A stretch of DNA of 64,000 nucleotides from positions 37,640,401 to 37,704,400 of the forward strand of contig CM120641.1 of assembly GCA_051362555.1 (NCBI GenBank), in the 5' to 3' direction. Below are positions 12,956-62,600 of the stretch, piece by piece. Position 1 is the first letter of the stretch; the number at the start of each line of letters is the position of its first letter. Source of the DNA: Lingula anatina (lineage: Eukaryota > Animalia > Brachiopoda). The notes under the pieces were generated by a model. The model worked only from the letters and a program-made list of their open reading frames with translations, was not told the DNA's origin and ran no database searches. A program made the translations under genes and the position numbers.

Positions 12956-13035
12956 CCCGAATCCGAGTAGACTTGACAGATCTCAACTCGACTCCCAAGA
13001 AGCAGCAACTTGAGCGAGAACGTGCTTTTTCAAAG

Positions 13036-13731
13036 ATGTCCGACTTTTCCAACGACAAGATGAAGGAAGAGTTTTTAAGCAATGATGAAAATGACAATCT
13101 TATATTCAGTCGCCAGCACCAAGAAAACAGGCCTATGGACTGCCATAGTGAACAAGCTCATAACAGTGCCGACTCCGGTAAGAAAAAGCGCTACACAAAA
13201 TCACGAATCCGAGCCAGGAGTCCAGCAATGATACAAAAACTAAAGAAAACTCGACGTGTCAAAGCAAACGACAGAGAACGAAATCGCATGCACAATTTGA
13301 ACGATGCATTGGAAAGCTTGAGAAAAATTTTACCGTCCCCCGGTGAAGCTAAACTTACCAAAATTGAGACACTTCGCTTCGCACATAATTATATATGGGC
13401 CATGACGCAGACGATCAAGATGTGCGATTTACAAGAGCGTATGTTACATGGAATCTCGGGAGACAGTGGAAACACAGACTGCTTCCAGTATCCTCAGGGT
13501 GACAGAGCCGGGTTTTATCACAATAACCACCCAGCCAGTCCAGTGTCTTGTATGCAGCAGTTTTCACCGGGTCTCGACCAGTCCTACCCCACCAGCTGGA
13601 CGCCATATAGGAATCATCACAGTGACAACAGCTTCCCCTCAAGTCCCAATTCAGACTGTTCTGATAGCAGAGACAGTGTGTTCTACTCGGCGGACAGCCC
13701 GGACAGTTACAGCTTTATTGGAAGTGTGTGA
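13036..13731 (+). CDS. neurog: Neurogenin (atonal-superfamily proneural bHLH transcription factor), intronless, 231 aa
   Basis: bHLH domain [31 protein letters not shown]...[18 protein letters not shown] is diagnostic of neurogenin/tap; Ser/Pro-rich C-terminus. First ATG downstream of the TATA box is at 13036; AATAAA at 14268-14273. Confidence 0.95.
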
Positions 13732-20705: not shown

Positions 20706-22482
20706 ATGACTGCAGCCATGCTTACGTTGGCCGTTGCTCTCGCTGTAATAAATATTGTCAGAATACAAGCCGAGGTCTACTCATCCTTCGCTCATCTCGA
20801 GCGTTCACTGCAAGCTGAGCAATCTCTGGCGAAAGACATCAAAGATTATATAAAACAAGAAAAAGTGCGGCTGGAAAAGTTGGAAAGGTAACGTACGCGA
20901 TAGCATTGCCTACGTGGCGGCTATACATTAGTAGGTTTCCGATACACTATATTTATCCGTCTAAGTCTAAGCATGACGTATTTGCCTAAAAAGCAATGTG
21001 GTGTTGCGTAATAGGTTCACATAAATGCAATGGGACGAAATAGTAGGAAGTAGCCGAAATTAAATCAGTTTTTTTTGGCATTATCATGAATGGTTTCAGA
21101 GCTGCCGAAGAATATGAACAACACAGCAAAGCAGCGTTGGCGAACAGTGAAAGTTTCATGGGGAATCCCATCAACGCGTACTTGTTTATGAAACGCTTTA
21201 CGACAGACTGGGCAGACCTCAGTCATCTACTGCGAGAGGACCACAGCTATGGTATGCCCTACACACACTCCCTGGGTTCCCCTTTATTGCTTTCCTGATG
21301 ATATTTCAAGAAAGGCCCCTAGAGCCAGACAAACTGCCACAATCATGACTGGTAGTGTAGATAGAGTATTTTAATTAAAATGTTGTGCATGACCCAATTT
21401 CTGAGGTACATTTTTAATATTTATCAGCTGAATGGATTTTATCATTTATTTGTTAATTTTAGATGGATTCCTACTCTAGATTAAACCTGAGAATAGTCTC
21501 GAATGTGTAACACATTAGGTGCAGCCATTAACGTGAAGTCTATAATACGAATCCACCTTTTCCACGTGTCCTGTAAATGTGATCAGAATACCTAATATTT
21601 AATTACGCAATATTTATTATAATTTTTTTTATTTAATATTTCTTTGCACAGATCTTTTGGCAAATTTCGAAGAGATCAGAAACAAGGGATTTTTACCTCA
21701 GTTGATAGATTTACAAGGGGCAGCGGCAGCTCTGATGAGGTTACAAGACACATACAATCTCAACACATCCGAAATTGCCAGTGGAATACTGCAGGGAGTG
21801 AAGAGATCGCCGGGTCTATCTGGTATGAATATACTTATGATATTTTAACGACATTATTAATTTGGATAGGATCTTTGATAAAGTTTTTCTTTACACTCAT
21901 TTATCAGATATATGTAATCAAATAAGTGGATGCACAGGAAAATCCACAGGAAATATCAATGGTCGTGAGGCTTACGGGACATATTTTGTTGGGTAACATT
22001 CAATTTTATTCTGCAATGCCAAATTTTGAAAGCAGTTTGCGTAATTGCATAGCAATTGCAAAATTAATAACATAATGCTATGATTCATTCCAACTCCCGT
22101 GCTTAACACATTTGCCTCGACAAATACTTGATTATTCATATGCAGCAACAAATACCTACAACACATCTGATAGTCGGTCAAAGTTTATGTCCAAAATGTT
22201 TTGCAGTCAATATACCGGTGAACTTCTCATTTCAGCCTTTGACTGTTTTTACTTTGGGAAATACGCATATAACCAATCTGATTACTACCACACACTTCTG
22301 TGGATGCAGGAGGCGCTCAATAGACTGCCATTTGAGCCTGACTCCCCCATAGACCGGATAACCATATTAGATTACTTAACGTTCGCAACTTTCAAGGTAA
22401 GGGGATTTGTGTGCTTTCAGTCGACTAGAGAAACAGACATCCTATTTGAATGTTTCTAAGTCTGTATGTTTTTTAAAGGGGG

Positions 22483-22515
<33 letters not shown>

Positions 22516-22533
22516 TGTGATTTTATCTCTCAC

Positions 22534-22604
<71 letters not shown>

Positions 22605-23327
22605 GGTCAAAGATAACGTAAACTCTTGCAACCAAATAGTAACTCAAAATCTAACCTTTTCCCCCAGCATCATCCGAGACATACACAGTCCAACGAAGTT
22701 TGCTAATGTCTTACAATATTTCAGCTCATAAAGTGGGAAAAATGAAAGCATATTTCGGAATTTTAAGGTTGGTCTGTTTTGGTTTTTAGCAAGGAAACGT
22801 GAGACACGCGCTTCTTCTTGCAAATGAGATGCTGCAGATAGGTAAGTGCTCAAATAGCAAGTAAGCGCTATATAAACAAAATATTAATGCCACTGAACTA
22901 ATACTTTAATTGAAATACGAATTTTCATTTATGATATTTGTGAGACAATAATTAATGGCCTAAAATACAAACATTTCCAACTAGTGACTACATGGCGTCA
23001 CCAATAGATCAAGTGACTTATTCAATCTAAGTTCACAGTTATTCCCTTTATTTTTAACAGACCCCGAGAACGAAAGAGCATTACAGAATAAAAGATATTT
23101 TCTATCAAATCTTGAGGAATCTGACAAGCCGATGACGATTGAAAATAAAAGGCCACATAGGGGAGTAAGGGATGAAGAATATGAAAATTATGAAAAACTA
23201 TGCCGAGGAGATAGTATTAAACCTTTCAAAGTAGGTTCAGCTATTTGTATAATTATCCTCTTCATTTGAAATGTCGTTGACACCTTACATCTTGAAGACA
23301 TTTAATTGTGTATATTATTATTATTAA

Positions 23328-23361
<34 letters not shown>

Positions 23362-26300
23362 TTAAAGCAACCTCTAAAACCTGATATGTGAGATAACGCA
23401 TCTTTTTTACCGTTTCATGATTAGACACCAAAACGGACCCACAAACTTACTTGCAGTTATGAAACCAACAAGAGCCCTAATCTGCTGTTAAGACCATTCA
23501 AAGTTGAAGTATTGTATCACAGCCCTAAGATAGTCATGTGGCACGATGTGCTGTCCGAAGTCGAAATGAAGAAAGTGAAAGAGCTCGCTACGCCTCGGGT
23601 ACGTAGTAAGAGAGGCTAACATTTTGCTTAAATGTGATATGGTTTGTATTTAAAGTATTAACAGTTTCCTATCCGGGATTTTTCCCCCTTGACAAAAAAT
23701 AATACCACCATATTCTTCCTGACATTTTAGAAAGAAATGTCTGGATCTGGTACTTTTATTTGATGGGTTTTATCATTTCTAAGGCGAATTGGGAAAGATA
23801 AGTAGCTTTGCAGGGTATTAAGATCTATATAATATGACTTTGGAACATCTGGAACCGCGTATAGTAGCCTACACCTATAACAGCGCACATCGCATTGCTC
23901 GCCAAGAGAGACATTATCATGCTCGAAAAAAGAAAAAACTAACAGTTGTCTAGATGAATGCTCGTATTCATTTATTTCAGTTAAACCGCGCGACCGTTCA
24001 CAATCCGGTGACAGGAAAACTTGAATTCGCGGAATACCGAGTTAGCAAAAGGTCAGTGTCTTCGACGTCTTGTGTTTTGGAAATTGTGTGGCGCAAAAGT
24101 TTAAGCGAAATTGTTAGAGCCTCAGGAGATGCTACAGTAGAAATCAAACTCGTTTATATATAATGTAACCAGTGTGCTCAAGCTTACTAGAGTATGGCCC
24201 TACTTTTGTGGGCAGTGAGTTAGATCATCATTATTTTAGTGAAATACTTCAATTCAATGAGAGGACAGTACAAGTACACAACGAGACTTCTTCGATGTGT
24301 TACTAATTGTTAAAAATTGCCGTGAGTATGAAAATTCTTATAAATTTCTCTGTTCTAGCGTTTTCTTGGACAGCGACATCGACCCCGTAGTGGAAGTAAT
24401 CAGTCAAAGAATCGCAGACATCACTGGATTAGATATGTCCACGGCTGAAGGACTACAGGTGTGGCGCCTTGCTAGTTCTCCATTCAACTAAATTTGCCAC
24501 ATTAAAAAAATGTTATATATTTTTTTTACCTTATTTGCTGACATTGGTAAACTAGAAAAATGTTCTACACACACTGGACAATAGAAGTGTCACCCCTTGA
24601 ATCAGAGTAATCAAAGTTATTAACCTGAAGAGGTGAAATATAAGCAATGTCAGAATATCGATACAGTTGAATTGTTCAGTCAGAACCATTTTTTTTGTGA
24701 AATTTGATGTTAATAAATGGATACCAGAAGCATATCATTCCGCAATCATTTATCTCCCTCAAAGTATCGGTTCAGTAGGGGTGACACTTCTATTGTCCAG
24801 TGTGTGTAGAATAATTTTTCACCAATAGAATGTGTTATGTTTTTTTTCTTCTCTAACTACCTAGGTAGCTAATTACGGGATGGGTGGACAATATGAGCCA
24901 CATTTTGATTTTGCCCGGGTAAGTTTTAAAAATACAAGATTAACTTTGAAATAAATCAAGTGTTTTAGTCTATTGTTTTCTCATCAACTTCGCTAATCTG
25001 AGGGGTATTTACAAATACCTAGTTTAATATTAGTGAAAAAAGTACATGCATGTAGCTTGTAAAGACATCATTGTTTTTACTTATGTGACGTATAGGGCTT
25101 CAAAATAGCATTAAAGGGATTTTAATATATAGCCTGTTTACTATCATTATACAAGAGACACTGATTCACCTATTTTACTGTTAAAAGTTATTGGATTATA
25201 CATTTACGTAGTGTTTTAAGACAAGCCACTTTTTTTTCCAGAGGAGAGAAACCCACGCTTTTAGTGATGCTATAGGAAATAGAATAGCCACAGTTCTGTT
25301 TTATGTAAGTAATTGCACTGGAAGTAACCGATGCTGTTACTCTATCAGTCGACATACCCGTGCCTATGTCAGATAAGCTTTTTGTCTTTTTGGTCTCAGT
25401 TGTCGAGAATAATAGTGACGTCTTTCTAACGTTAAATTGTTCAGCCAAACAGTTGTTAGAATCTAGGACCCATTAAAAAGAGGATACTGGGTCCTATTAA
25501 GAATTAAATCAGGTTCGTTGTATGTGTGATATACTGTATAATGTTTACCATTCTGTTTTGTCGTAAGATGACAGACGTGGAAGCAGGGGGCGCCACAGTA
25601 TTTCCCAAACTAGGAGTTAAAGTTTTCCCTAAAAAGGTGCGAGTGTTGCATAAGTTCTGTAATCAAATATTTAGTGGTGTATGGTGAATTAGACTCAAAC
25701 ATATTGTATTTGAACTGTAAAACGCTTACACTTTCGTTGTAGTCATATGCATATATCGGTATAATAATTTACCAAAGTTAAAGTTTTATAGTAATAAAGT
25801 TAAAATGCAATTTATATATTTCTACATGTATGTATAGTAAAAATAACTGACACAATATATTAAAATATTACTTTTATTTTATCAAACCTCAGTCATTGAA
25901 AGGACCAATTTTGAACTACAATTATAAAACTGTGGAAAGTAACATACATGTATTTGTTGATTACATTTTAGGGATCTGCAGCATTCTGGTACAATCTCAG
26001 ACGGAGTGGTATTGGCGACTACCGTACAAGACATGCCGCGTGTCCGGTGCTGTCTGGGGCCAAATGGGGTACGTAAGCTCAGCACGCGCTTTGTAATATC
26101 ACTCACTACCCCCCCCCCCCCCCTCCCCAGGCCCACTAATTGATTTTTTTTTAAATCAGATATTCACAGATATGTATCTAGTCAATTCATTACATTTTTC
26201 TCTACTGTGTGCGTTAGGAAAAAGTGCATATTATTTATCTGCGGTCATGGTAGGCAAAATATCACAGTATCTGTGAACATATTCTTATTAGAATGTAGTC

Positions 26301-26745
26301 TAAGCACTAACTTCTACCATAGGTGATTCACAAGGTAGTGGTAAATGTCATCATCATCATTGCTCTTCGTCCCGCGTGGTGGTAAATGTACACCATTTTT
26401 AAAAGTTGCTTCGGCCGCATTCAGAACAGATGATCCGCGGACTAACTGGACTAATAACTGGTCAGTCAGTTAGTCCGCGGATCATCTGTTCTGAATGCGG
26501 CCTTAGTTCGACGATTTGTTTTTAAAATAGTATTTTTTAAATTCCTTGTTTTTTGACTGTATTAAATCTTGCCTCCTCCGTGTAAAGCCTATCAAACATG
26601 GCTGTCGTGTACCAAGGCATTGTATACATCCTTGCTTTTACTGAGCTGTATTCATCTTTATAAAATCTTTTCAGTTTGCAATAAATGGCTGCATGAAAGA
26701 GGACAGGAATTAAGGCGAACGTGTTCAACCAATCCTAAGGAATAA
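20706..26745 (+). CDS. P4HA: Prolyl 4-hydroxylase alpha subunit (P4HA-A), 14 coding exons, 528 aa: 20706-20887, 21100-21251, 21652-21822, 22236-22396, 22790-22841, 23061-23230, 23425-23598, 23981-24051, 24359-24458, 24865-24918, 25242-25304, 25568-25636, 25972-26068, 26675-26745
   Basis: Signal peptide, GNPINAY, ALMRLQDTY, TPR peptide-binding domain (DYYHT..WM), YRVSKS, VANYGMGGQYEPHFD (HxD), GNRIAT, GGATVFP, TRHAACPVLSGAKW, CNKWLHERGQE. All introns are GT-AG and the spliced length of 1587 nt is in frame. Confidence 0.95.
22485..22600. repeat. (CT)n / (GT)n(GA)n microsatellites in P4HA-A intron 4
   Basis: Directly visible. Confidence 0.9.
23314..23361. repeat. (ATT)n microsatellite
   Basis: Directly visible. 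Confidence 0.9.
24568..24806. mobile_element. Tc1/mariner-type MITE in P4HA-A intron 9
   Basis: 30-bp perfect TIR CACACACTGGACAATAGAAGTGTCACCCCT...AGGGGTGACACTTCTATTGTCCAGTGTGTG, flanked by TA on both sides. Confidence 0.8.
26413..26502. mobile_element. Short palindromic MITE (PIF/Harbinger-like) in P4HA-A intron 13
   Basis: 36-bp perfect inverted arms (26413-26448 / 26467-26502) beginning GGCCGCATTCAG; flanks TTC/TTA resemble a 3-bp TWA target-site duplication. Confidence 0.7.
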
Positions 26746-27603: not shown

Positions 27604-30058
27604 CTAAGTGCCGTATTTCGCTCTAAGTTTTTCATCTAACATCTGCGACAGTGCACCACACAGTTCAAAGTGAAGCTGCTGGACCCTGGAAAACAAGAGG
27701 AAATGAACTGGATTCAAAGTTGAATAGGGCATTAATAAAACCTATGGATTTTACAGAGAATACGTACGGAAAATAATCCCGCATTTTGGAAACTTTCTAG
27801 CGACATTTCTAAAATTCAAATGTGTTGGAACGCAATGAAAAACTACAGGAACTAAATAGTTGCTCTTACCTGAACATTGAGTTGTCCATATGATCGAGAC
27901 TCGTGAGTAACGTGTCTAGCCAGATAAGATTTGTAGAGATATCTGAGACCACTGCAAAATCGTCATGACGTAGTGTATCTTCGAATTCTTGGACCATTTC
28001 GTGGAAATTTGAGTACTTACCCCTTCGCTGATGGAAGAAGGGGATAAGAATCATAAGTGATGATACTAAAGAGATTTCCTTTTTTACTCATCTACTTTAA
28101 CATAAGTTGTCACAAGACATACAGTATAAAACTTATGTTTGCATAAACGACTGAAATATGTTTCCAAAGAAAATATTAAAAAGGAAAACGTAAAAGAAAC
28201 GATAACCTCATCTCATATTATTCCTACTTTATACTACCTGTTTCTCCAGCATTTGTTTAACTTCATTGTGCTGACGTTGTAAAAGGAACTCTTTCTTGTG
28301 CTTCAGGGCAGCCTCTCTCTCGGCAAGCTGCTCTGCCTAATGCAAGTTTTTAATCAAGATTTTTTCATGTGAATCCTTCAGATTTCATTAATCTTTAATT
28401 CATTACACTGTTAATTACTATGTCAAATAAAAACTATCAGGCCAATTAAGGGGATAATAACTGCTCGTATGAGATCCATATTTCAAAATAAAAATATCAA
28501 AAAAATATAATAAATTCTATTTTACCACCAAAACGGAGATTATCGCAATTTTTCTGGAATCTGCGTCGTTGAAGATGATAATGCAAATAATTCAGTGGTC
28601 GCATTTTTTTCTTTGAAATTTCCGATATTTCTTCCATGCATATAGTGTCATATCTATTACTGCTGGTAATCAAACCAGCATGCAATTTTTTTAATACTAT
28701 GGGGTGTCTTTGAAGAAACACAACTCTAAACACAGAGCAAGGATCACGCTTTCATTTACCTACCGCGTAGTTTTCAGTCGCTTCACTGATATTCATAATG
28801 ATAACGCCAATCATTACATTAGAAAAAATGAAGTGCCCTAGGAAAATAAAAAAGATGGTGTAAATTCTGCTGCCATCCATGTTGTAGTTATCTAAACTTT
28901 CCTGGATATCTGTCCATCCGTCAACCTGGAATGTAGACGATCAAAATAATGATAACGACTTGTTGTGAGTGCGATCTTTTCTAGTAGATACAATTTTGCC
29001 ATATTTCTCAAATGAGTTTTACTTATGTAATTATACACACGTAGTGGGGATATTAGAGTTCACAGGAAAAGAGAGAGAGAGAGCGATGAAAACGATCACT
29101 TACGGTAACGTAGCTAAAAAGAGTAAGCATGGCTTTGTCCAGAGATCCCCAATTCTGTTTGTCTGCGTCGTCCTTGTATCCAAAGAAATAGTACCCCATT
29201 ATGCCAAACAGGAACATCAGAAGGAGCAGCAGTCCGACTACGTTCAACACAGATTTGCGTATGGTGTCCAAAAGAGCTGTTACCAAAACCTAACAAGTTG
29301 AAAAGAGAACAAATAGCAAATTTTCATTCCTTTTGATGCAAAGAGAAAATCAGGAAATGGCTATAGGAACCAAGACGCAACAACATTGAAATGAATACGC
29401 TTGTAAAAGTTCTTTTCTCTGAACATGATAGGCTAAGTAGGCCTATCACCTATTAAATGCCTTATGCAGAAAAACTAAATCTATACTACATAATTAAATA
29501 TAATAAATTAATTCATTATAAATATATTATAAATAAATTTAACAAAATAAATAATAAAATTCCAGCATACAATACCTGCAATCCTCTTATAAAAGATACT
29601 GTGCGCAGTGTTCGCAGAGTTCTCAGCGCCCTAAGTATACGTAAGGCCGCCAAGCCCGAGCCTCCTGCATTCATTAACACGAGTATAATCTGGACATAGG
29701 ATATCACCAAAACAGCAAAATCAAATAAGTTATAACTACTAAACCAGTAGCCTTTCGGCTCGGCATATAATTTCATTATAAACTCTATAGTATATACCGC
29801 TAAAAACAGTTCGTCTAGAATGTGAAACAAATCTTTGCCACTCTCTCGAATAGAAATGTCGGTCTCCAAAGCCATACACAAGGCATTACAAACGATTGTG
29901 AACATGATTATGAAGTTGAAGACTGAAGATTCGGTGACATCTCTAATAAAACGATGGAATTCTCTATCCCAGCGAGCACCGGTCTTTTTGGCCCATACGT
30001 CATCCTCAAGATCCACTTCAGGATCATTGAATACCTTGGCGAAATGTGCGAAAGACAT
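27604..30058 (-). CDS. CATSPER3: Cation channel sperm-associated protein 3, 6 coding exons, 389 aa: 30058-29576, 29289-29104, 28925-28764, 28336-28238, 28027-27870, 27685-27604
   Basis: Single 6-TM channel domain with S4 (LRILRALRTLRTLRTVSFIRGLQVLV), pore motif YVTVDGWTD typical of CatSper3, S6 (GHFIFSNVMIGVIIMNI) and a coiled-coil tail. GT-AG introns; 1170 nt in frame. Confidence 0.88.
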
Positions 30059-30138
30059 CTTGAGAACGACGCAGTTGGCAAGAAATGACATCAAAAGTGT
30101 TGCATACGTTACTCGCGCACGACGTGACAGTGTTAGTG

Positions 30139-30146
30139 TGACGTCA
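30139..30146. promoter_or_regulatory. Palindromic CRE (TGACGTCA) about 80 bp upstream of the CatSper3 ATG
   Basis: Exact 8-mer in a CpG-rich promoter-like stretch. Confidence 0.45.
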
Positions 30147-30318
30147 TTCCACATGCAGGTCGTGTAAACGGCATTGTAACAATTTCATTGAATTTTCGCT
30201 GGATAATTTTTAAAAACTTGCTGGACGTAATAAGAGATGAAACCAGGGAGGGTGGGCAACCGAAAGATATAGCGGATCCAGGCCCCACCTCCCTCCCAAG
30301 AAATTAGAAAAGGACACG

Positions 30319-48023: not shown

Positions 48024-51000
48024 TCATTCATATGGGCTCAGGCCGCATGTTCTCACCAGTTCATTGCCTCGTTCATGAATCCATTTATTTGAAACTGAAA
48101 GAAAATATTTTACACTAATTATTTAAATCACAAAAAGGTTCTGAAATGTACATTTAACAAAATGCATCAATATACAAAAAATAACATGAAAAGAGCCCAG
48201 AACTCACACCATGTTGGCATGTGTATAGAATGGAATATCAACTTTCCAAGGGCATCATAATGACAAGTACATGGTTTTCTTGACATGTTATTCAAAACAG
48301 TAAGTGATGAACAATATGCTATAATACAACAGTTTTAACATATTTAAAAATATAGAAGAAATCTCACCCCATTTCTGTCCCACTAAAACTGGGCAAGCTG
48401 CATGTCTTGTCCTGAAGTCACCTTCTCCACTCCTGTATAGGTTGTGCCAAAACACAGCAGAACCCTGAACAAAGAACCCCACAAAGTGTTTTAACAAGTA
48501 TATAGCCACCTTAAGTTGAAAACATGTGTCTTAATGGATATGCCTCAGAATAATATTATGGGGACAAGAAAAGTAATTTGAATTAGATATTGGTAGTGAA
48601 CTTTAGGGGCTTCAAAAAAGATGCATTTTCAGTGCAACAATTCCATTTTAAATATTTATGCCCAATTCACAAACCAGCCGTCCGCACCTAATGACAGTAA
48701 AATGTTTATGGATACATCATGAATAATAAACCTACATGGGAAATGAAACTTGAAAGCTATAAAACTATTAGGCTACCTTTTTAGGAAAAACTTTGACCCC
48801 AATAGGAATAAACACTGTGGCACCTCCAGCAGTGACATCACTCATCTGAAATCCAATCAGTTTTAAGTAAGACAATTTCAAAAATTCAGATGTAAAAACT
48901 CCACATTATTGAATGAATACTATACATCTGATTTACTTATTATGAAGGACCTAAACCAAAAGTACACACTAAATGGAGCACACTTAACCAATTTGCTTAT
49001 TATTTTATGCTGCTTTTTTACAAAAAGAAAAAAAAATAATAATGAAAACAACATTGATAAAACAATTTGTCCTGAAATCTAACATCTACCTCCTCAGCTC
49101 TGGCTTAGTGATCAAATCATTAATGGCTCCATCTAAATAGAATGCTGTTTGCTTTCATCAAACGAGCTGCATACAGATGCATAATACAATGTCTACACAT
49201 CTGGTCTTTCATGTAGATTTTGCATAGATTGACAGCACTCCCCAATTATCTTTCAATTACAGTTAAATAAACTTCAAAGTAGATCCCCCACCTCATTTAA
49301 AAACACTGATACTTTATTTTTTTACCCTCTGTTTCAAAACAAACATTCTATCATAAACATTTCTCAGATTTTGTACCTTTACTAATCATTTGAAATGCAA
49401 TACTACATTTAACTTTTACCAAAATATGTTTTTTCTTCTTACATAAAGGTATTCCTCTAATTTAAAAAAATAAAAAGAATTTTTGAAAAAAATTACTTTG
49501 AATAAATAAAAAGAATTTTAGAAAACATTAATTTCATTTAAATCATCAAAAAATCAAATAAAAATAAGAAAACAACTCACGTAGTTCAACCATGTGGCAA
49601 TTCTATTGCCATGAATATAATCAAAGGCAGTCTCCTCCTGTTTCTAAATCAAAACATACACAATAATCCATTAAACCTCTCCAGACTGATCCAACACATG
49701 CACACAGCACACTGCCACCATGGGAGTGATGGTTCTTTTATCTGAGCACCAGTATAATATATACAATCATTTCAATAAATGATGAAAAAGTGAGCAATCT
49801 AACATTTCCATCATTCAAGAACAGATAGAAACCAGTACATACCCCATATACTAACTGCACAACTCTAAAGTATCTTACAATGCACTGCTGCTCAGATAAA
49901 AGATGCAGTAAGTAAAGGATGCAAACAACAAACAGACGGCTACTCTAAGCTAGGCTGGCTTGGTTGGGAATACAAGGCTACAGCCTGCAGCGCATTTTGT
50001 GATCCTTTCCAAAACACTATTCCCAACCAAGCCACTTACATAATTAAGCAGAGTAGCTATCCTGTTTCCTACTCTGGTATCAAAAGCACTAGATTCATCT
50101 TTCTGAAAACAAATGTGTTTTAAATTACTAAAAGCCATCAAGACATCTAGCCATTCCTTTTAGCTATTAAGAAGCCAATGGTTTTATTGCAACACTGATA
50201 TATTTCAATTTGATGTAGTAAAAGGTAAAACGTGCAACTAATTTTAAGTGGTACAGACATAATTAGACTTAAGTGTTTGTAAAAATTCATTTTTGCTTTT
50301 AAATTCTTTAAAACTTTCAACTAGAATTTCTCTCATTATAACACCAATATAACCAACATACTGTTACCTATGACATAATCCAGAATTTTGAATTATTTTT
50401 AAATAGATTATAAAAAACATGCTTACTCTTGCAAAGTCAAAGTGAGGCTCATAATGCCCACCTATCCCATAATTAGCCACCTGAAAGAAAAAGAACAAGG
50501 CAGCAAAGCTGTCAAATGTACAGACAAAGAACAGAAAATAAAGACGCAAATAAGTGAAAAATTAAATTTTCACAAAAAACTGTTAAATTGCCAGAAAAAT
50601 TTACCAAACAGACTGCGTTGCCTATTGAAGCTGTATGTTAGACCCATGTTTCTTTCCTGTAAGTTTGAGAACAGTAAGTGACATGATTTCCCTTAAATGG
50701 TCATCATAGGAGCAGTGCCCAAAATAGGGGTTTCTTCAAATTTTGATGCAACATTACATAATGTTTAACAGCATAATGACAATCAAATGTTATTAATAAA
50801 ATATAAGTAACATGGACATTCAGAAAATGTGACAAGCAAAAGTCTTCAAGATCATGGAACTTTAAAGTCACACCTTGAAAATGCCAATATGTGAAAAATT
50901 AAATTTTCACAAAAAACTGTTTAACTGCCAAAATAAATAAATAAATAAATAAAAATACCAAACAGACTGCATTGCCTACTGAAGCTGTATTTTAGTCCCA

Positions 51001-53624
51001 TGTTTCTCTCCTGTAAGTTTGAGAACAGTAAGTGACATGATTTTCCTTAAATGGTCTTCATGGAAGCAGTGCCCAAAATAGGGGTTTCTTCAAATTTTGA
51101 TGCAATATTACATAATGTTTAACAGCTTAATGACCATCAATTTTTAATTATAAAATATTTGTTTCACAGATATTCAGAAAATGTGACTAGCAAAGGTCTT
51201 CAGGCCCATGGAACTTCAAAGTCACGCCTTGAAAATGCCAAAATGTAAACAAGACAGCACTGTTCTGAAATGGGTTTATTTCCATTTTTAACACTTTTTT
51301 AACATAAAACAAAATAAACATTTTACTGCCATTTTATATGACCAACTAAGAAAATTGATGAGATGGGAAAAGTATCAATAGAACAGTGTTAAGTGTCCAA
51401 TTTCCTCCATTCTGAGATTCTGAACATAGTGGATGATTGAATCTGACAAACTGCAATGATATGAGTTTATTTCCATTTTTGACACTTTATTACATAATAC
51501 ATGATAACAAGTTTACCATGTTTTTTACATAATCAACTAACAATGTTGTAAAGATGCAGGAAATATCAAACAAACACTTTTAGGCATCTTATTAGTTAAA
51601 TAATGAGACTGTTAACATGCCTAATAATTGAATCTGAGGAAATGTGAAAAACAGTATAACTTCTAAAATAATGGCCTGATTATGCTGATTTTCGAACTCA
51701 ACCTGCGTTTTAGTAAGATTGACCACTCCTGTGAGTATGATTACAATTGGCCAATCCGTTTTTCTTATATTGTGTTATCAGTGTTGTATTTATATTGAAA
51801 ATAGTGAAAAAACAGCATAAAATCCCTAAAAACGGCCCAATCATGCTGATTTTCGAACTTGACCTGCGTATTATGAATATTCATCAGTTCTGTAAGTTTC
51901 AAGTCAAAAGGTAAAATGGTTTTCCACTTATCGTGTTATCGGTGCTGCATATATGCTGAAAAAAGTGAAAAAACAGCATAAATTCCCTAAAAGTGACCCG
52001 ATCATGCTGATTTTCGAACTTGACCTGCGTATTATGAATATTCATCAGTTCTGTAAGTTTCAAGTCAAAAGGTAAAATGGTTTTCCACTTATCATGTTAT
52101 CGGTAAAAGTGCACGGCGCCGACGGCGCCGACGGCGACGACAGACGCAGATGATGGCTATATGTACAGACACATCTGTGTCTGTACATAAAAATTGCATC
52201 TGATCAAAACACATCGTATTCAAAGGCAACTGGGAATTAACACTTTTGACTAAAAGACAAACAAATATCCGTTAAGATGAAAAGTTCATCAGAGAGCACC
52301 AGAGTGAACATGTCAAAATGGACATAATCTATTCTAATTTGTACCTAATGATAGTTGATCTAAGACCCCATTTCCAGAGATTAGATCGATCTACTTTAGA
52401 TCGACCTAACTCCCTGGGGGTTCACGCTAAATAGCTGTCAGCCGAGCGGACAAGAAAGTTAATTACCCCCTTGCAGCTTGTAGTAGGCTGGACGGACATT
52501 TAAGCCGGATGATCTGACAGTAATCTAGTGAGACTTCCCGCGGGGATAGATCGATCTAAAAGCTCTGGGAATACAGCCTAAAACTGCTAGGTAAAAGAAA
52601 AAGAAAAAAAAACATAGTGTAATGATTTGTTACTAATTACCTGAAGATCTTCAGCCATAGTCATGTCCAATTGGGTGACATCTTTTATTCTTTGGTTGAC
52701 TCTTTTAATGACAGCATCTTCATCTTCCTTCAGCCATGCACTAAAAAGTTCATTTTCATATAAATATTGGACACACCATTGGAGGATATTTAGCAGGAAT
52801 CTTTACTGGTTTGTCTTCTGTTGCATAAAGCAAATGTTACCTAGTTACTATGCAATTATAACAAATAAAGTAAAAAGAAATACATATTTTCAATAATTAA
52901 GAAATCAATATTTTTCATTTTAATTTGCATTCATTTCTTAATTTATGAATTGCTAAAAGCACCAATTTGAATACATATACAAACTAAACATGTATCAATA
53001 TCAGTGCCAAAGTGCCTTTGATATACATTTAATTCCCACCCCCAATCAAAAAGTATGTTAAAAAGATCATGTACAGAATTTCAGCACACACACACAAAAC
53101 AATTTCCCCATTATATTTAGGTCTTTGGTTGCCCTCAGCACTCCCAACACCATGGTGCTAACATCACACATTGAAAAAAAAACCAAATACAACATAACCT
53201 CTCATATTATTCTACTCTTTGCTCTATTTTCTTTTCTATCTGCCATCCAAAATATTATCGGCTTTATTTTCATTTAACTTTTTTTTTTTGCTTTTAATTA
53301 TATTTATTTCACTCTGGCAGCTTGATGTCCTCTTATCCATGGGGTCCTATGCATGTGTTTAGTCTGCTTAGAAATAAATAACAGCCTGAGCCCCAAACAA
53401 ACAAGTACTCTATCAGTATATGTTTATACATAAAACTTTTATCTTCACTAAGCTTGAACGAGGTGAACAATTCCATGTGTTCATTGTACTTTCCATTCCA
53501 TTTAAAAGTGAATTTTGACCAGGAATACAAGTCCTTGTACTTTCAAAATGTGCAAAATGTCTTTAGGATATAAACCAAGGCTATCAACAGGCAAAGGAGG
53601 AAGATTTAAGAAAACCCCCCCCCC

Positions 53625-53690
<66 letters not shown>

Positions 53691-56600
53691 GCCTCCTTAA
53701 CTAAAAAAAACAATATAATGATTCATTAGTTATAACTTCTACTTTTAAAATGTATCAATTTTAGAGTGATATATTTACTATCAATCAATGTTTGTGATAG
53801 CTTATTACAAAGTTATCAAACTGATAATCGTAAAGAAATCTTTAATCGTCTTTCTTGTATACTTATATATTGCACACTTCACTCCAAGCAAGTAGTGAAA
53901 ATATTTCTTCAATGTTTGACCAGTGTATACTTCAGTGCACACAGTAAATAGACAATTATCAAATCCTTGCTCGTGCTCTCCCCAATCAAACCTGCTGCTT
54001 ACCCTTTACTTGTACGGTAATTTTGAGTGGATGGCTTTGATGCATCAGAGGTATCAAACACTGTGGAACGTGCCAGCTACAACACATGACAAATCATGCA
54101 CATCATGGGAACTACACAGACCAATAACAGTGCATGTGCTCAAGACATTCACACAAGAGCTGAGAACGTAAGCAGTGCCAGAGTAAACCCACATTTGTGG
54201 CACTGATAATACTCAAAGTATAATTCTCAAAAGTACTATTGTGAACTCACAATAGCATGAGTGTGAATCCACAATAGTACCAATGTGAACTCACAATAGT
54301 ACGAGTGCAAACTGAACTGTGAAGAGAAACAGAATCTTAATGAACACTTAAATGCAACCAAGCAAACGTGAAAAATGCCATTAGTATAGAGTGTGGCAGA
54401 GTAAGGCTTCGTTCACATGCAATGTCTATTTTCTATTTTCTATTTTCTATTTTCGGTATGTCTTATGATCACGGTCTGTGCACTGAATATCCCGCCGCGT
54501 AATTACTGGCAGCGCGAGCCAGTTACTTAAAGTAACTTATAGTAACTGGCTCGCGCTGCCAGTAATTACGCCGCGGGATATTCAGTGCACAGACCGTGAT
54601 CATAAGACATACCGAAAATAGAAAATAGAAAATAGAAAATAGACATTGCATGTGAACGAAGCCTAACACTGCAAGAATTTCAACTAAAACTTTGTTACAG
54701 ACTTCTAAGAAAAAGAAATTGCTGAAAAAAGCAAGGGCAACTCAATAAGTTAGACACTTCAAAAGATACAGAAAGTTAAAAAAAAACAAATTAAAACAGT
54801 CTCTGTTATATATTAAATCAGAAGGGATTATAAGACAAGTGTTAGCTATCCCATTGTGCATAAAATATTGCCAAGTTATTTCATGTCTGACTTAAACAAA
54901 AAATGCCACTTCCAGGCAGCTCTCATTTCATGATGGTTTTACCATTTCTGAAGCACAGATATGCACCTCCTACATAACAGTTAAAATCTAGGAAAATGAC
55001 CAGAAAGTTTAACAAAGTTTAAAAGATAAGAATCAAATCTGTACTCAGTAAGACCAACTGCACAGTTAGACTATTAATTTTACCTTTTACTAGTTCTATA
55101 CTGTACCCTTCCATGTTTATGAAACACACCCGAAACGGCAAGCTAAAACAGAATCACATGGCACATGACATTCAAAATGTCTATGAGGGCAAACTGTTTA
55201 CTATACAGACAATATGTCTGCCATCCAGGAACTTCTCTAATAGGATATATAGTTGATAACATTATTGGGGTAAGGGAAGGGAAAAAGCTGGGTATTTATA
55301 ATTCTGATATGTGTAGAGGGAATATAACAAATAGAAAACATATCTAGAGAGTAGAAACTCACAAAAAATAACAACAAAAATCTTCCTGCTGATCTTCAAA
55401 AATCACTTTTACATATTTGTCCCTAACCTAAATGTGGGTCAAGAACAACAAACCTAAAAACCCTGAGTAGTTTAAAATCCAACCATTCAAATTAATACTT
55501 TTATATATTCCATACATTGCTTATAAAATTTTGCTTACATAAGAATGAGTATTTTACATTTGTGAGTAGAATATAGAAAATTACATTTTCAGTTCACAGA
55601 GGGTTACATTCACAGATCTATTAAAGCTACTGGGCTTGAGTGTATTGAGGCATTAGGGAAGCAGTGGTATTATACCTTTCATAATCCGAATTTAATATGA
55701 AAAGGTATTACAAAAGATCAAGGGTTGCTCAGAGATAAGCATATCTGTGCTACATACCATCTTACGTACATTTTCCTGAAAGCCTGCCACCAACAAAACA
55801 TAAGTCTTCAACCCATTATATCCAAGATTAAACAAAATAAATGGTTGGTTAAGAAAAATTGTAAGAATTATAAAAAACAATGAAACAAAAATTCGTTTTA
55901 AAAAAGAAGTAGAAAAAAGTAAAAGAAAGGAAAAAAATGTGCATTTCATCTTCTGATTGACTGCAAATGCTATGGAAGTGTCTCCACTCAATTGATAGAA
56001 CAATGAAGTTCAAAAGAACAGCACTTGCTGCAATATCAACTTAAGCTGCCATTCAAATTCAGAAAAAAAATGTTACAGACAAAAACAAAAATGTAGCTTT
56101 TGCCTTTAAAAAAACACCTAAACAACAACCAATTTTAACTCGAGTTAGACAGACACATTGGGGAACATAACGTAAACCTTTACCACCTGGCACCAGAAAT
56201 TCAACATTAACTGACGCTAAACAACCCAATCATGAACCAAGCTTGGACAACATCACCAATTACCAAAACCTTTGGGGGAAAAGCAGTCATAAGTTTTAGG
56301 AGTGAACTTTGTCATTCTCAGGGAAACAGTATGGTTATTAGTAAACATGCTAACAGATGAGTCACATGTCTACACAAAACATAAAAATTGATGAAATATA
56401 CAAGCAACACTTTACCTTTTACTTATGCGGTAAAATGCAGGCTCGTAACGACCTGTTTGGAGATTCATTGCAGTTGCCCGAGCAAGCTGTAAAAACACAA
56501 AGGAAGGAAAGAAAAATTGAAACAGAAAATTAAAAGCATTACCCAAGATCAGAAGCTATACTCTGATCAACCCAGATATGCAGAACGAAATATATAACTG

Positions 56601-59600
56601 TAAAACCTGAAAAGGCTGACCCAGATGAGGCACAAAGCTGAAACAGAAATATAAGATGGTATGACCCATGTGGGATTAAGCTGGTCACGAGCAAGGATGG
56701 GCGTGGAGTATCAATCATTTTCTTTCATTTTTTCCCCAAAAAAAATTCTATTTTTCTTTGTTACCTTTTACTTATTCTGTACTTGGCAGGTTCAAGTTGA
56801 AGAGTTTGGGGATTTTGAACAGTGGCTCGAATTAACTGCAAAACATATTTTGATTAAAATGTCAACTATAAAAAATAAACCCGCACAAATAATGATAATA
56901 TGAGGCATGCACAGTAGATATTTCAGGCATTAAAATACGATTCAAGAGTATCATGGTTTCCACCTAAATTGGGACTTTTATTCCATGCACATGCCATCCC
57001 ATGCTTTTTAAACAATCCAAATCACAAAACTATCTCCATCTTAAACTGAAGAACACAACTTCCTCTATCTTATATTTCATGCACACAGCCTTCCTGGTCT
57101 GAAACTATGAAGCTCTCCTTTACCTTTTACTTATTCTATAGAATGCAGGTTCCAGTTGTCCTGTATATACATTTTGTACTGTAGCACGTTTAAGCTGAAA
57201 TGCACACATTCTATGTGAAACTACAAAGAATTTGAGATAAAATAAAAAATAGAGGGTTAAGCAATAACAACAGTAAAACAAAACATATCATTATAGCCAA
57301 TAAAGAGAGTGCAAGAGAACATGCAATTCACAAAGAATATTTACACTATAAGTAACAAATATCTCTATTTCAATTCATGCATTTCATATCTTTCTGCAAT
57401 ATAAAATTTCATAATAAATGTTATCTCAGCCCCAATGACATGTTATCCAAATTCCAATTAAATCAAACAAAAGAAAACATTTCTACAGAGCAGCACTCAT
57501 TGTGTAAATATTTCAAATAAACCCAACTAGCAATGGATGAATTGAATAGAGACAATTCTAAAGTGGTAATAGATTAACAGTTGAATAAAAGCTTGCTGAT
57601 AGAATTTTAAGAAAACAAAAGTGTGACAAAAAATTGTGCATGTTGATTACATTAAAGCATACAATTCAATTTTCATCACGCAAATGAATTTAATGAAATC
57701 AAGTAAGAAACAAACAATTGTTGCTTTATCAAAACACATATATTTTGATGATCATTTTTACAAACATGCATTACTCCGAATAAAAATGACTTACATTTCT
57801 GATGCAACAATTCGGCTCAAACAGTCAATTTTATCCAAATATTTAACTATACTTTTGATAGTATTTATAATAAGCTACATGCATAACACCCATTAAAACA
57901 TGCAACAAGACAAAGAGTAAAATGTCAAGTCATTGATCCACTAGCTGGTTTCAGTATGTGCCACAGCATTGCTTAATATACACCAGCAAAATTCAGTTCG
58001 AGGTCTTTCTACATGCCTTTATATAAATATATATATTACATGGATACCTTTATATAAATATATAACCATGCACATGCATACATGTGGATCATAGCAACTC
58101 GGCCATTACAGGTCTTATTCACTGACCTAAATTTTGCTTTCAGATTTTGTTTGTTGAATATTTTTTCAGGGTGGAAACGATGTATAAATGAATAAATAAA
58201 TCATTCATTTTTATTACATGAATGCTTACCTTAGGTGCAGCAAGCCTTTTTATTGTCTCTATTTCAAAATCTGAGAGCATGTTATGATAAAACAAAATCC
58301 TTGGATCCAAGAATGCCTCCTCTTCCTTCAGAGGCCGTAATAACAGATTAGGACGATTGTTGTGTGTGTAACGGCATTTCAGCTTGTGTTTGTTGGGATC
58401 AGGCTGAAAAAAATTATCAGATTCCAAAAATATTTCAACAGAAAAAAATTCATTAAAAAACCAACTGAAAAAAATCACCAATAACCATATTGAAATAACT
58501 AGAGCTAGCCTGCAAATCTCATTTTTGCATTTCATCTCTAATAACAACATTCGAGACAATATGACAGCAGTTCATGAATCACAATGACCAAATTTTCCTA
58601 CATGTTAACTTGATATTTGTCATTTTTATGAAAAAACATTAAACACTTCAATGCAAGAAAAAAATTATGTGAAATCACATTTACAGTAAAGGAAACAGCT
58701 ACCAATAATCATTTGCATAAACACCTACAATGATATCCTCTCCTCTACAAAGAGCTTCATACTGCTTGAATTCTTGACCCTTTCTGTAATCATCAAGAAG
58801 TCGCTGGTTTTGAATTTCTGGCAAATCTTCCTCTTCTCCGCGCTTTTTTTCCTGATCAGCCGTCTCCAGCAGTTTTTCATAATAGCGTAAATTATTGACG
58901 GCTCTTGGATGATTGGGATCTGACATAAACAGAGAGTTTAGTTAAATGCAGCAATTTGACCCCAAAACAAAACATCATCTGGCAATATTAAAAGGGTATT
59001 TTTGACTCAAATCAATTCATTTGCCACACTGTGGACATAAATATCTTTACACAAATAATGGACACTACCACATGATAACTAATCCACTAATCATGTAGTT
59101 CATGACAAAAGAATGTATCAGATTGATTAACTCAGTCATCAATGTAATTAAGGTAAAGTAAACATAATTTCCCCTAATTGATATTTCCTTGTATGATTAC
59201 TTTTTTGTATATAATTGGATGGAATTCTTGTTTACGTCGACATGTTTACTTCATTCCAAGTGGAACAATTTAGAAAACAAAAAAATGTTTCAAAAAAATT
59301 AAGATGTGTTACATATACTACTAACCTAAAATAAAAGATGTCAATATGTGAAAATTAGAAAACATGCTAATTGAAATTAATAACTGCAAAAGACATAAAA
59401 AGCTTGAAGCTGATAACCTTCAAAATGCCCATAAAAAGCATAAAAGATATGAAGTCATAATTTAATACTAAGGAAAAAATAAACTTTTTTGATTCGATCC
59501 AAAAACTAAACCAAAAGAAAAGTTGTTACACTAAACCCAAACAATACATCAGAAATTGTTTTATAAATTGACATGAAAGTTTAAAAAAAAAAAAAAAAAA

Positions 59601-62600
59601 AAAAAAACAGGAGTAACTTTTGGATACTAAGCTGGAGTTAACTTCTGCTTGTTCTAGATGGTGCACAATTGTAACTCAGGTCAGTGTGTTCTTAGTCATT
59701 TTGTTTGAAAAGACATGCTTTGGTTATACAACTTGATGATAAATAAGTCAATTTATTTAAAAAAAAAGAGGAACAAAATTGAAGACTGTAGATATTTGTG
59801 TGCAGATTGAAAATTATAATGTGTTCAGTTTTAAAAGTCAAATAGAATTCTGAGCACTGAAATAAAGAACAGAAAACAGAGAAAGCAATTCACTTTTAAA
59901 AGTCAAGCACAACTGGATTTCAGAAATGAACACAGTGAAAGTGAACAGATGCCCCTGACCATGAGAGAGCTGCATACCACATCACACAAAAGTTTTGTCA
60001 TCACAAACTTTTCCTTGCTTACCAAGTTCTAACAGTTGTTTGGTGAGCTTGCGTGCATGCTCAACATTGCCTTGCTGTAAAATATATAAATATACATTCA
60101 TTTAAACATTGTAACTCTTATAAAATGTTGATCTTACCTATCTTAAGAAGATCTTGAGTAAGTAAATAAGCATGGCGGATATTCCCTTGCTGTAAAAAAG
60201 GTGAACATAGAATTCAAAGAAGAAGGAGAGAAGGAAAGATGAAAGGAAGAAAAATTATAATAAAACTAATACTTTTTTTACAAAACTGAACTGTTAAAGA
60301 ATATTTTCAAGTATCATTAATAAACACTAACAATGACTTTGATGAACAGGAAAAATGTACTGAAGAACAGTTAACATTTATCAGGAAGTACTGTAAACAT
60401 TAAATATGGCAATAAAGCATTTATCAAGAATCTAAAACGACCATAGACCAAAGCTGGGATTCTAATTCTAACATTCCTTTCCCAAGACCAATTTTCTCAA
60501 TAACTGATTAACACACACACAAACACACACACTTTTTAGTCAATGTACACTACTTATTTTTGTGTCTAGCGTGAGATAAATAAATCTTAATGAAATCTTT
60601 TCAAGTAACATTGGAACCATGGGATACTGATCTTTTACATTAAATTAATAAAACTGAAACCAAGTATTGAAATATTTCAAATTCAACACAACGCAAGAAA
60701 AAGAAAGTCCATTCAACCCAAGTTTTGCTGCAAGAGCAAGAACCCTATCTTTCTTTTTTCTCTCTTTCAGGGATCTGCTGTAAATATTTCTATCTACCTG
60801 CTCATGCCATGGCAGATGTTTGGGGATTTAAATCAGGTTTTTAAAAGCATGACACCAGGGACACAACCAATGCAACCAAGCACATGATATGTTACACATC
60901 TCTGCATAAAGATTCATGAATCCCAAACCAATCATGTCCAAACCAATCATGTCAGTATGAGATATACAACACACCCATAAATAACTTTCAAATATATATA
61001 ACTGGCAGCTATATCTTATAGCAGCATTAGACAAATAATGTTTATGTAAGTAGCAACTAGGATCTTAAAAGCATAACATAAGTTTGCTAATTATTCATAA
61101 TACTTTGACAGCTAAATCTAAATACTTGCACCCCAAACATAGTACCATTGTGAGAGCATATGCCAGATAGTCCATAATCTCCCCCATGCCGACAGTTTTA
61201 ACTTCCTCTTTATGCCAGATAGCCAGGGCCTGCTGCATCCAGTTCACCGTGTGGTACCAGTTCCCCTCAGTGTAGGCATACTTGCCCAGTACAAAACATT
61301 CCTCCGCTAAAAACACACACACACACCATAGAGAAATAATGGGTTGGATATCTCCGACCTGTTTTATTTTACAACAATTAGTTGGTGCTTGCATGCTATC
61401 TTCCTTAAACTCTATGACAATTTCATAACTTTGTTCAAGCAGTATTGTTTTTGGAATATATGTACCAGGAGCATGTTGCACCTTCGCTGAAGTCAGGTTA
61501 TCTTGGTTTGATTAATGCATGGTACTGTTAGTCGGTGCTCGCATGCTAAATTCTCATCCCTGCATTCTTATAATGCTATTAATGGCAAAGGGCAATTTTT
61601 CTTCAGGACAAAGGTCTCAATGTAAGAGTTCATTTGTGTACAGAGCAACATTGTGTCAGACACCAACAAAACAATCTGGAATTTTCTATATCCAAGCCAA
61701 TGTATAAGCAGGCAGCAGACCTGTGCATCCATATCACTGGTTGCTCCACCCACTTTGTTTTTTTTATTCAAATTCTTGATTAAATACCAATAATTCCTGG
61801 TACATGGGACACGGTCTGTATGGCCTTACTAGGGTTACATGCACATTGCTATAAGACACTTTTTATCATATAACTGTAGTTTTCTCTTCAAGGGTGTTTC
61901 ATGCAAAGGCATTCCACATCTCACATTCTTGAACACACAAACACACACAGTCATATACATGTGATGACATGCAACATGGTTTTGCTGTTAAGTGCTTACC
62001 CTATATAGTGAATAGGCAAGGTAATCTATTGTCAAAGCTCGGTCAGCTGTTTTGTTAACTTCTGTATCAAGTGTGTTTAATGCCTCCTCCATCCATAAAA
62101 TACAGTGATAATAATCTCCAGCATTGTAGGCAGTTCTGCCCAATTCAAAGCAATCCTCAGCTGAAACAAAACACACAAACAAGATAGGCACCAAGCAGTT
62201 AGTACTAAACAACTAATAAATACATCAACCAGGCCTGTAGACAAGCAATTTTAAGGGGGAGGGGAAGGTGGTTCTTTATCCGAAAAGGTAAACCTTTTTG
62301 TGTGTTCACAGAAGCTAAATCAAAATTTGATTCCGAGTGGACCCTTTTCCAACCAAAAAGGCAATCTGTTCCAACCCCCCCCCCCCCCCTTTGCCTAAGG
62401 GCCTGTCAACTAAGCTACAATATCTGTGTGCATACTAAATGGCAAGCTCCAGGGATCAAGCATTGGTTTGTTAATATTCAACCCACAATCGTATTCTGAA
62501 ATCAAAGCTACTTTTTTAATCTGAAATCAATGTCTAATGAAGTAAAGGACTTGGTAGGCCATAAAGCAATACTGAAGTACTAGTAAATATGTAACTTGAA

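Follow-up and report, generated by a model that had tools for sequence, protein, structure and literature searches.

Five tandem copies of an active-site lid exon in a Lingula anatina collagen prolyl 4-hydroxylase gene and their likely role in substrate choice

Why would an enzyme gene carry five versions of one short exon? The window, a stretch of 64,000 nucleotides of Lingula anatina DNA, holds a collagen prolyl 4-hydroxylase alpha gene on the minus strand in which exon 8 is present as five copies. With a probability of roughly 0.6, we favor the reading that this is a tandem-duplicated cluster whose exons are spliced one at a time (seen for three of them), swapping the lid of the active site and likely tuning the choice of X-Pro-Gly sequences. 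Exon 8 and its flanks, with their RefSeq and read support, lie as follows:

58230..58403, minus strand: exon 7, constitutive, in which the catalytic domain begins; donor to every exon-8 copy
57124..57194, minus strand: exon 8a, 71 nt, canonical RAT...RISK hairpin loop; RefSeq X7, X8, X10 and X11, junction reads
56765..56835, minus strand: exon 8b, 71 nt, canonical loop; solely in the second RefSeq model (P0002)
56416..56486, minus strand: exon 8c, 71 nt, the dominant form; RefSeq X6, junction reads
55084..55142, minus strand: exon 8d, 59 nt, RTS-type loop; RefSeq X9
54003..54076, minus strand: exon 8e, 74 nt, RTS-type loop followed by Gly; RefSeq X1-X5, junction reads
52641..52740, minus strand: exon 9, constitutive; acceptor for every exon-8 copy

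Each copy has AG upstream and GT downstream, and all five lengths are 2 mod 3, so that exon 7 (ending at 58230) and exon 9 (starting at 52740) join in frame through any of them, with a junction codon for Ser after 8a-8d and for Gly after 8e. The initial annotation had proposed five copies of 71, 71, 71, 59 and 74 nt at these places, with these splice sites and a shared phase, all of which we confirmed, as we did its claim that two loops differ in length: the loops have 24 residues in 8a, 8b and 8c, 20 (-4) in 8d and 25 (+1) in 8e. Its expectation that such small exons would be missed by annotation did not hold, as 8a, 8c, 8d and 8e are found in RefSeq X1-X11 and 8b in the second model. Exons 8a-8c form a direct-repeat family with 65-70% identity among themselves, while 8d and 8e have 51-58% nucleotide identity to these three and to each other. 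A pattern scan for exon-8-like exons across the whole window, on both strands, returned 8 candidates, comprising the five copies, the lone exon 8 found in each of two paralogues nearby (39930-39860, minus strand, and 23981-24051, plus strand) and a 47-nt candidate at 39211-39165 that was rejected as a chance match. Chance or an assembly artefact as the origin of the five copies was excluded, since the exons have diverged and are spliced in reads.

Judged from its sequence, the gene encodes a collagen prolyl 4-hydroxylase alpha subunit. Such subunits work in an alpha2beta2 tetramer with PDI that acts on X-Pro-Gly. The predicted protein has the dimerisation region P4Ha_N (PF08336, E 3e-35) and the peptide-substrate-binding TPR domain (PF23558, E 1.5e-37) in the 8d and 8e forms alike, and its 2OG-Fe(II) domain matches PF13640 and the fold of 7ZSC. 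The His-x-Asp...His residues H427, D429 and H497 and the 2-oxoglutarate-binding K507 are invariant in a 95-row alignment. Exon 8 encodes the hairpin loop that covers the substrate over the active site: in an AlphaFold model of the 8d form (mean pLDDT 89.8), whose best PDB match is human C-P4H-II at 2.0 A, the exon makes two strands and a short turn, and it aligns with the hairpins of Chlamydomonas P4H-1 and human alpha(II). A single-sequence structure prediction reached a pLDDT of 39.6. Murthy 2022 (PMC9676403), in its available text, defines this hairpin as substrate-binding and describes it as mobile and closing over the substrate. An invariant loop Arg is shared by 8a-8e and 91/91 aligned relatives, and the Ser two residues past it is likewise kept in every copy; catalysis would therefore stay as it is and the lid alone would vary. 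Swapping the lid would in turn likely tune which X-Pro-Gly sequences of collagens and collagen-like proteins are hydroxylated. In the available part of a preprint, Salo et al. (bioRxiv 10.1101/2023.06.28.546674) report isoenzyme-specific X-Pro-Gly preferences with short peptides and attribute them to the hairpin and betaII-betaIII loops by docking, and it is on docking that a specificity role of the loops rests.

Splicing was examined by mapping four Lingula RNA runs on the cassette, with 6-30% of each run read and a threshold of 3 reads per junction, which gave 149 cassette joints (8c 107, 8e 34, 8a 8) and no listed joint of 8b or 8d in any of the four runs. Exon 8c was joined in all four (63 joints to exon 9, 44 from exon 7) and was the sole form in two of them. 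Joints of 8e (15 to exon 9, 19 from exon 7) were limited to RNA runs X7 and X9, where they made up about one third of the total, and those of 8a (4 at each end) to RNA run X7. Thus 8a, 8c and 8e are spliced at both ends in reads. Of the junction reads that the initial annotation had asked for at the two divergent exons, those of 8e were found at both ends (34 joints), whereas 8d had no listed joint; 8d is covered by reads in RNA run X7 that are probably unspliced. Among the 13 junctions listed, none skipped exon 8 or joined one copy to another, against the 149 single-inclusion joints, and the skip transcript and all ten double inclusions lose the frame and run into a stop; such transcripts would go to nonsense-mediated decay. 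The cluster thus resembles P4HA1-type mutually exclusive exons both in its tandem, homologous, same-phase copies with canonical splice sites and, at the 3-read threshold, in the single copy per mRNA seen in reads. Mapping on the whole gene was dominated by repeats in one intron, with no cassette joint among the 15 of 157 junctions listed. In all, mapping covered five of nine raw-read runs that carry the species label (X1, X4, X5, X7 and X9).

The polypyrimidine tract is strongest at 8c among the exon-8 copies (0.85), and together with its 72% share of joints this suggests that 8c is the default form. Exon 8e, in turn, appears to be switched on in certain tissues, stages or populations: its use was 0/31 and 0/18 joints in study P2 and 15/51 and 19/49 in study P3 (Fisher p 0.0006 and 0.0014), a contrast that cannot be separated from differences in study, library type and animal, and that is drawn from reads that are not independent. 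The P3 reads carry several fixed differences from the window sequence. Inside the cassette exons, at least four read variants were seen among the 40 listed (with 86 more), all synonymous, which is too few for a selection test, and the one in 8d comes from the probably unspliced reads.

These counts also bear on a plainer explanation, in which nearly all of the work falls to 8c, the duplicates 8b and 8d are either in decay or seldom used, and the forms differ little in function. The 107/149 joints of 8c, its sole use in half of the runs and the lack of listed joints for 8b and 8d all point that way, as does loop position 3, where 8d is without the Arg that 78/91 aligned relatives have. Neither 8d nor 8e has a counterpart among the alternative exons in the isoforms of 13 other species groups, contrary to the conservation that the initial annotation had looked for. 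We nevertheless consider this explanation unlikely, because 8d and 8e retain their frame, splice sites and invariant Arg, with no stop, at about 50% nucleotide identity, because 8e accounts for about a third of joints where it is used, and because 8d is modelled in RefSeq as isoform X9, although the read support of that model is not visible.

No annotated alternative exon seen in the other species groups comes near 8d and 8e in divergence, which would suit a change greater than mere fine tuning. The initial annotation suggested that the two exons could direct the enzyme to proline-rich substrates other than collagen; these might be secreted or shell-matrix proteins. In favour of this, 8e shares S-x-V-x-D and R-T-S-x-G with the hairpin of the algal Chlamydomonas P4H-1 (PDB 2JIG, 3GZE). 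In a set of 136 loops, taken from relatives that the full-length query retrieved, 28 carry the RTS motif, and Ser at loop position 4 and the RTS Thr co-occur with an odds ratio of 5.1 (p 0.0002, with no kinship correction), and the RTS form occurs in only 1/117 of the closest relatives and so marks divergent enzymes. The unequal use of 8e between studies would also suit this proposal. In contrast, among the 103 relatives with full collagen-type architecture, 27 have the RTS-type Thr as in 8e and 43 have another loop length, and the algal loop has 24 residues like 8a-8c, so neither feature is specific to plant/algal-type substrates; RTS as proof of such substrates was ruled out. The resemblance to plant and algal loops put forward in the initial annotation is thus real for 8e at the level of sequence but not diagnostic. 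Plant/algal-type enzymes are characterized by a preference for poly-Pro or (Ser-Pro)n. Moreover, Chlamydomonas P4H-1 is a single-domain enzyme, whereas the Lingula gene has extended N-terminal domains, and beyond the lid its collagen-type domains for dimerisation and peptide binding are retained; catalytic-domain identity to the Lingula gene is 32-33% for Chlamydomonas P4H-1 and 57-58% for human C-P4H-II. No candidate substrate was found: the available text of Luo 2015 (PMC4595640), in which 'hydroxy' does not occur, reports EGF-domain collagens of the shell as well as alanine-rich proteins. Retargeting therefore seems rather unlikely to us. An old shared origin of 8d and 8e likewise appears to lack support, because their best loop matches among the 136 are weak (score 47 against a median of 20 for 8d, 51 against 29 for 8e), and in a rapid, incomplete tree computed without the loop the proteins that carry them form no group with the Lingula gene. 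When the search was confined to the 8e loop, only the query itself came back among 4 candidates, at a sensitivity too low to establish absence.

Tuning by lid exchange, the reading we prefer, gains from the rest of the gene, in which three further pairs of alternative exons were found:

62000..62160, minus strand: exon 4a, alternative, first part of the TPR domain; RefSeq isoforms
61146..61306, minus strand: exon 4b, alternative to 4a; RefSeq isoforms
60138..60189, minus strand: exon 5a, alternative, second part of the TPR domain; RefSeq isoforms
60023..60074, minus strand: exon 5b, alternative to 5a; RefSeq isoforms
50040..50102, minus strand: exon 11a, alternative, betaII-betaIII substrate loop; junction reads at both ends
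49581..49643, minus strand: exon 11b, alternative to 11a; RefSeq X5, X8 and X10

The exon-4 and exon-5 pairs fall in the peptide-binding domain, where Pfam TPR_P4H begins exactly with exon 4 (residue 169), and the exon-11 pair falls in the second substrate loop, allowing up to 40 combinations with exon 8. All four alternative clusters thus lie on substrate-contact elements and none on iron or 2-oxoglutarate ligands, which argues against the proposal that the switch alters rate, oxygen or 2-oxoglutarate affinity, or stability through lid dynamics, for example in a low-oxygen burrow, and not sequence preference. Although the hairpin is mobile (PMC9676403) and hypoxia is reported, in the available text of PMC11868403, to shift the human 9a/9b ratio, we regard that proposal as very improbable. 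A more far-reaching reading, in which exchange of the peptide-binding domain, the hairpin lid and the betaII-betaIII loop lets one gene yield up to 40 hydroxylases, with tissue-restricted 8e and 8d lids acting on a different class of substrate such as shell-matrix proteins of the lineage, is doubtful. If true, it would provide a natural domain-swap series for the specificity rules of prolyl 4-hydroxylases and would derive the P4HA1 and P4HA2 switches both from one ancestral gene.

The two-version switch itself is long known, and what is new here is the five-copy cluster with its two lids of altered length, the isoforms being already in RefSeq. Human P4HA1 exons 9/10 (9a/9b) belong to the same family and encode the same loop in homologous tandem copies, of which only one is used per transcript; the initial annotation had placed the cluster at their position, and the hairpin alignment agrees. 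The Lingula gene differs in having five copies instead of two, two of which change length (-4, +1) and carry RTS, whereas the two vertebrate P4HA1-type forms compared both have 24 residues and R-I/V-S. An equivalent of the P4HA1 switch is reported in C. remanei in the available text of PMC8373072. Human P4HA2 exons 12a/12b match Lingula 11a/11b at the betaII-betaIII loop, so the P4HA1-type and P4HA2-type switches occur here in one gene, along with the two peptide-binding-domain pairs; splicing of 4a/b, 5a/b, 8a-e and 11a/b would match the three genes and two exon pairs of vertebrates. Variants of human P4HA1 alter the hairpin and those of P4HA2 the betaII-betaIII loop, as stated in the accessible part of PMC9676403. 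Among the annotated isoforms of the 13 other species groups, the exon-4 pair recurs in 11 and the exon-11 pair in 8, and no exon-5 pair was seen. The lophotrochozoan orthologue in scallops (Argopecten and Ylistrum RefSeq isoforms) has the exon-4 pair and exon-8 alternatives, but of the latter only two canonical 24-residue RISKS forms. Lophotrochozoan P4HA genes bear alternative exons on each substrate-contacting element, for which we found no describing paper in the open-licence literature. Where the human hairpin-loop splice forms are close to each other, Lingula offers, on one identical scaffold, a set of five lids that includes two very unlike the others, and one expression series could therefore show the loop's reach over substrate preference.

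Invertebrate Dscam-type genes, with several tandem clusters, more than two exons in each and combinatorial binding-surface isoforms (available text of PMC8373072), invite a further comparison. The Lingula gene is similar in having multiple clusters, more than two exons in one of them and a combinatorial layout, but it encodes an enzyme and not a receptor, allows at most 40 combinations, and gave no convincing docking site, of the kind that pairs with a selector beside each exon, in a scan whose best windows (-14 to -17 kcal/mol) undercut the average of 12 mononucleotide shuffles by about 2 at the most. Choice among the copies may be steered by UGCAUG elements, an Rbfox-type motif: the cassette holds 12 copies of TGCATG, where shuffles have 2.9 +/- 1.7, and 0/200 shuffles reached 12.

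The minus-strand collagen prolyl 4-hydroxylase (P4H) alpha gene carries five alternative copies of exon 8 between exon 7 (ending at 58230) and exon 9 (starting at 52740), each with AG/GT borders:

57194-57124, minus strand, exon 8a, 71 nt
56835-56765, minus strand, exon 8b, 71 nt
56486-56416, minus strand, exon 8c, 71 nt
55142-55084, minus strand, exon 8d, 59 nt
54076-54003, minus strand, exon 8e, 74 nt

The initial annotation had described these exons correctly, as a check of borders, lengths and phase showed. All five lengths are 2 mod 3 and each copy links exons 7 and 9 without breaking the frame, with the junction codon encoding Gly with 8e and Ser with 8a-8d. When computed, the skipped form and 10/10 double inclusions of exon-8 copies reach a stop. 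Identity is 65-68% among 8a-8c, which encode canonical 24-residue RISK-type hairpin loops, and 51-58% between 8d or 8e, whose loops contain R-T-S (RTS type), and the rest of the cluster. Between 8d and 8e lies a palindrome (54381-54687; 153-nt arms, 93% complementary) that is probably a small mobile element, since many of the RNA reads covering it originate from other copies; it could fold in the pre-mRNA beside 8e.

Exon 7 has 100% matches in two Lingula anatina prolyl 4-hydroxylase alpha proteins, and RefSeq annotates the gene twice (P0001 and P0002, on contigs of 43,137 and 405,662 bases). Among the 11 isoforms of P0001, X1-X5 use 8e, X6 uses 8c, X7, X8, X10 and X11 use 8a, and X9 uses 8d; 8b is present in P0002. 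The five exons were therefore not missed by annotation, as had been thought probable. P0002 joins exons 4a and 4b in series without exon 5, an exon chain that looks like a modelling error. Comparison of the RefSeq isoforms gave three further alternative pairs:

62160-61146, minus strand, exon pair 4a/4b
60189-60023, minus strand, exon pair 5a/5b, with 63 nt between 5a and 5b
50102-49581, minus strand, exon pair 11a/11b

Together these permit 2 x 2 x 5 x 2 = 40 forms, 11 of which are in RefSeq. The intron after exon 9 (50494-52615) is full of repeats abundant in the transcriptome, with depth up to about 1800.

RNA evidence came from raw-read runs chosen by species label, 5 of 9 being examined, and spliced-read junctions (joints) of the cassette were counted in runs X4 and X5 (study P2) and X7 and X9 (study P3), with 6-30% of each run read and at least 3 reads from 2 starts required for a junction row.

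Joints per exon-8 copy in runs X4, X5, X7 and X9, in that order
8c: into exon 9, 13, 18, 11, 21; from exon 7, 10, 8, 9, 17
8e: into exon 9, 0, 0, 7, 8; from exon 7, 0, 0, 6, 13
8a: into exon 9, 0, 0, 4, 0; from exon 7, 0, 0, 4, 0

Across both ends and all four runs, 107 of the 149 cassette joints involve 8c, 34 involve 8e and 8 involve 8a. The junction table has 13 rows, 7 of them non-cassette rows due to the palindromic repeat. At this threshold and read fraction, the four runs gave no row for 8b or 8d, and none for skipping or double inclusion of exon 8. Of the joints proposed in the initial annotation, those of 8e to exons 7 and 9 were thus recovered and those of 8d gave no row in these partly read runs. 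Six X7 reads cover 8d, and they are probably unspliced because five reads also lie on the intron 32 nt past its donor. Exon 8e accounts for none of the P2 joints and about a third of the P3 joints (Fisher p 0.0006 and 0.0014), a comparison in which study, library and animal are confounded. The P3 reads show nearly fixed differences from the window at five exon-9 and five exon-7 sites, P2 reads match it, and the P3 animals are possibly a divergent population or cryptic species. The four read variants listed within 8a, 8d and 8e are all synonymous, a number too small for a selection test. That the exon-8 copies are near-neutral duplicates seems unlikely.

Most likely, one exon-8 copy is picked per transcript. 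Exon 8c would be the default choice, since the pyrimidine fraction is 0.85 before 8c versus 0.50-0.65 for the other copies, and wrong splice products (skips, doubles) would be removed by nonsense-mediated decay, leaving a series of enzymes with different lids. The motif TGCATG, which we take to be an Rbfox-type site, has 12 occurrences in the cassette where 2.9 would be expected (0/200 shuffles reach 12); four control regions show no significant enrichment. A docking-site scan of the exon-8 cluster found no convincing site.

Exon 8 of the 8e form aligns across its length with human C-P4H-II (7ZSC) and Chlamydomonas P4H-1 (2JIG, 3GZE). According to Murthy 2022 (PMC9676403), the peptide is enclosed by two loops, the hairpin and betaII-betaIII, of which human P4HA1 variants alter the former and P4HA2 variants the latter. 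In that paper's numbering, the hairpin corresponds to exon 8 and the betaII-betaIII loop to exon 11. The Pfam peptide-substrate-binding domain spans 169-258, and its first 71 residues come from exons 4 and 5, so all four alternative clusters lie on substrate-contacting elements. The invariant iron and 2-oxoglutarate ligands fall outside all four; a kinetic or oxygen role of the exon-8 switch we consider very unlikely. The 8d form, modelled with AlphaFold from a 95-row alignment, keeps the fold (mean pLDDT 89.8; best PDB match 7ZSC, 2.0 A), and 8d itself forms two strands and a short turn (pLDDT 64-76). An Arg present in 91/91 aligned relatives is kept in all five copies, and an upstream Arg present in 78/91 is missing from 8d.

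Salo et al. (bioRxiv 10.1101/2023.06.28.546674) report that X-Pro-Gly preference on short peptides varies among the human isoenzymes, and they ascribe this, via docking, to the hairpin and betaII-betaIII loops. Because these are the same two loops, we favor the reading, at a probability of roughly 0.6, that the exon-8 switch would tune X-Pro-Gly preference. A plausible candidate client is the group of lineage-specific Lingula shell collagens with EGF domains, described in PMC4595640.

The RTS-type exons had instead been proposed to retarget the enzyme to non-collagen substrates. The algal resemblance is real for 8e, which aligns with the Chlamydomonas hairpin at S-x-V-x-D and R-T-S-x-G, but it is not diagnostic: among the best 150 cluster representatives, 103 had a full N-terminal region, His-Asp-His triad and extractable loop (the other 47, partial or lacking one of these, were left out), and of these 27/103 have Thr at the RTS position and 43/103 a loop length other than 24. 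Among 136 relatives' loops RTS occurs in 28, and S-x-V plus RTS together in 12. Since nearly all loops of the closest relatives are of the canonical type (117/117 of 24 residues, RTS in 1/117), RTS marks divergent enzymes, which tempers this objection, as does the fact that no RTS-bearing relative has a known substrate (those looked up with an identified source were two, both insects). Retargeting is thus unsupported, and we regard it as doubtful. Two database relatives, P0221 and P0198, have loops somewhat like 8d and 8e and did not group with the Lingula main gene in a quick, preliminary tree.

In the incomplete isoform sets of 13 other species groups (molluscs, a nemertean, ticks), the exon-4 pair was found in 11/13, the exon-11 pair in 8/13, the exon-8 pair in 2/13 (scallops, both forms canonical) and the exon-5 pair, seen in the Lingula gene only, in 0/13, with no RTS-type alternative exon 8 in any. 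Molluscs and a nemertean also have the exon-4 and exon-11 pairs. The five-way cluster is real; vertebrates are already known to have the switch, and RefSeq already contains the isoforms. Among paper listings from an open-licence library we found no description of a five-way exon-8 cluster or the four-cluster layout. A C. remanei duplication equivalent to that of P4HA1 is reported in Martinez Gomez 2021 (PMC8373072).

Past the main-gene stop codon, a stretch of about 2 kb (47900-45900, minus strand) that contains no long ORF is probably a long 3' UTR ending near the next paralogue. The window holds two P4H alpha paralogues, with one exon 8 apiece, and three other genes:

44900-38000, minus strand, P4H alpha paralogue directly downstream of the main gene
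21600-26500, plus strand, P4H alpha paralogue
12757-13731, plus strand, bHLH gene (PF00010), presumably neurogenin-like
29516-30184, minus strand, ion-transport-domain gene (PF00520)
about 36336-35050, minus strand, HORMA-domain gene (PF02301, below cut-off, one exon), which we assume to be MAD2-like

The minus-strand paralogue is sister to the main gene (SH-aLRT 98, quick, preliminary tree), and its exon-8 loop is very basic, with 7 Lys/Arg.
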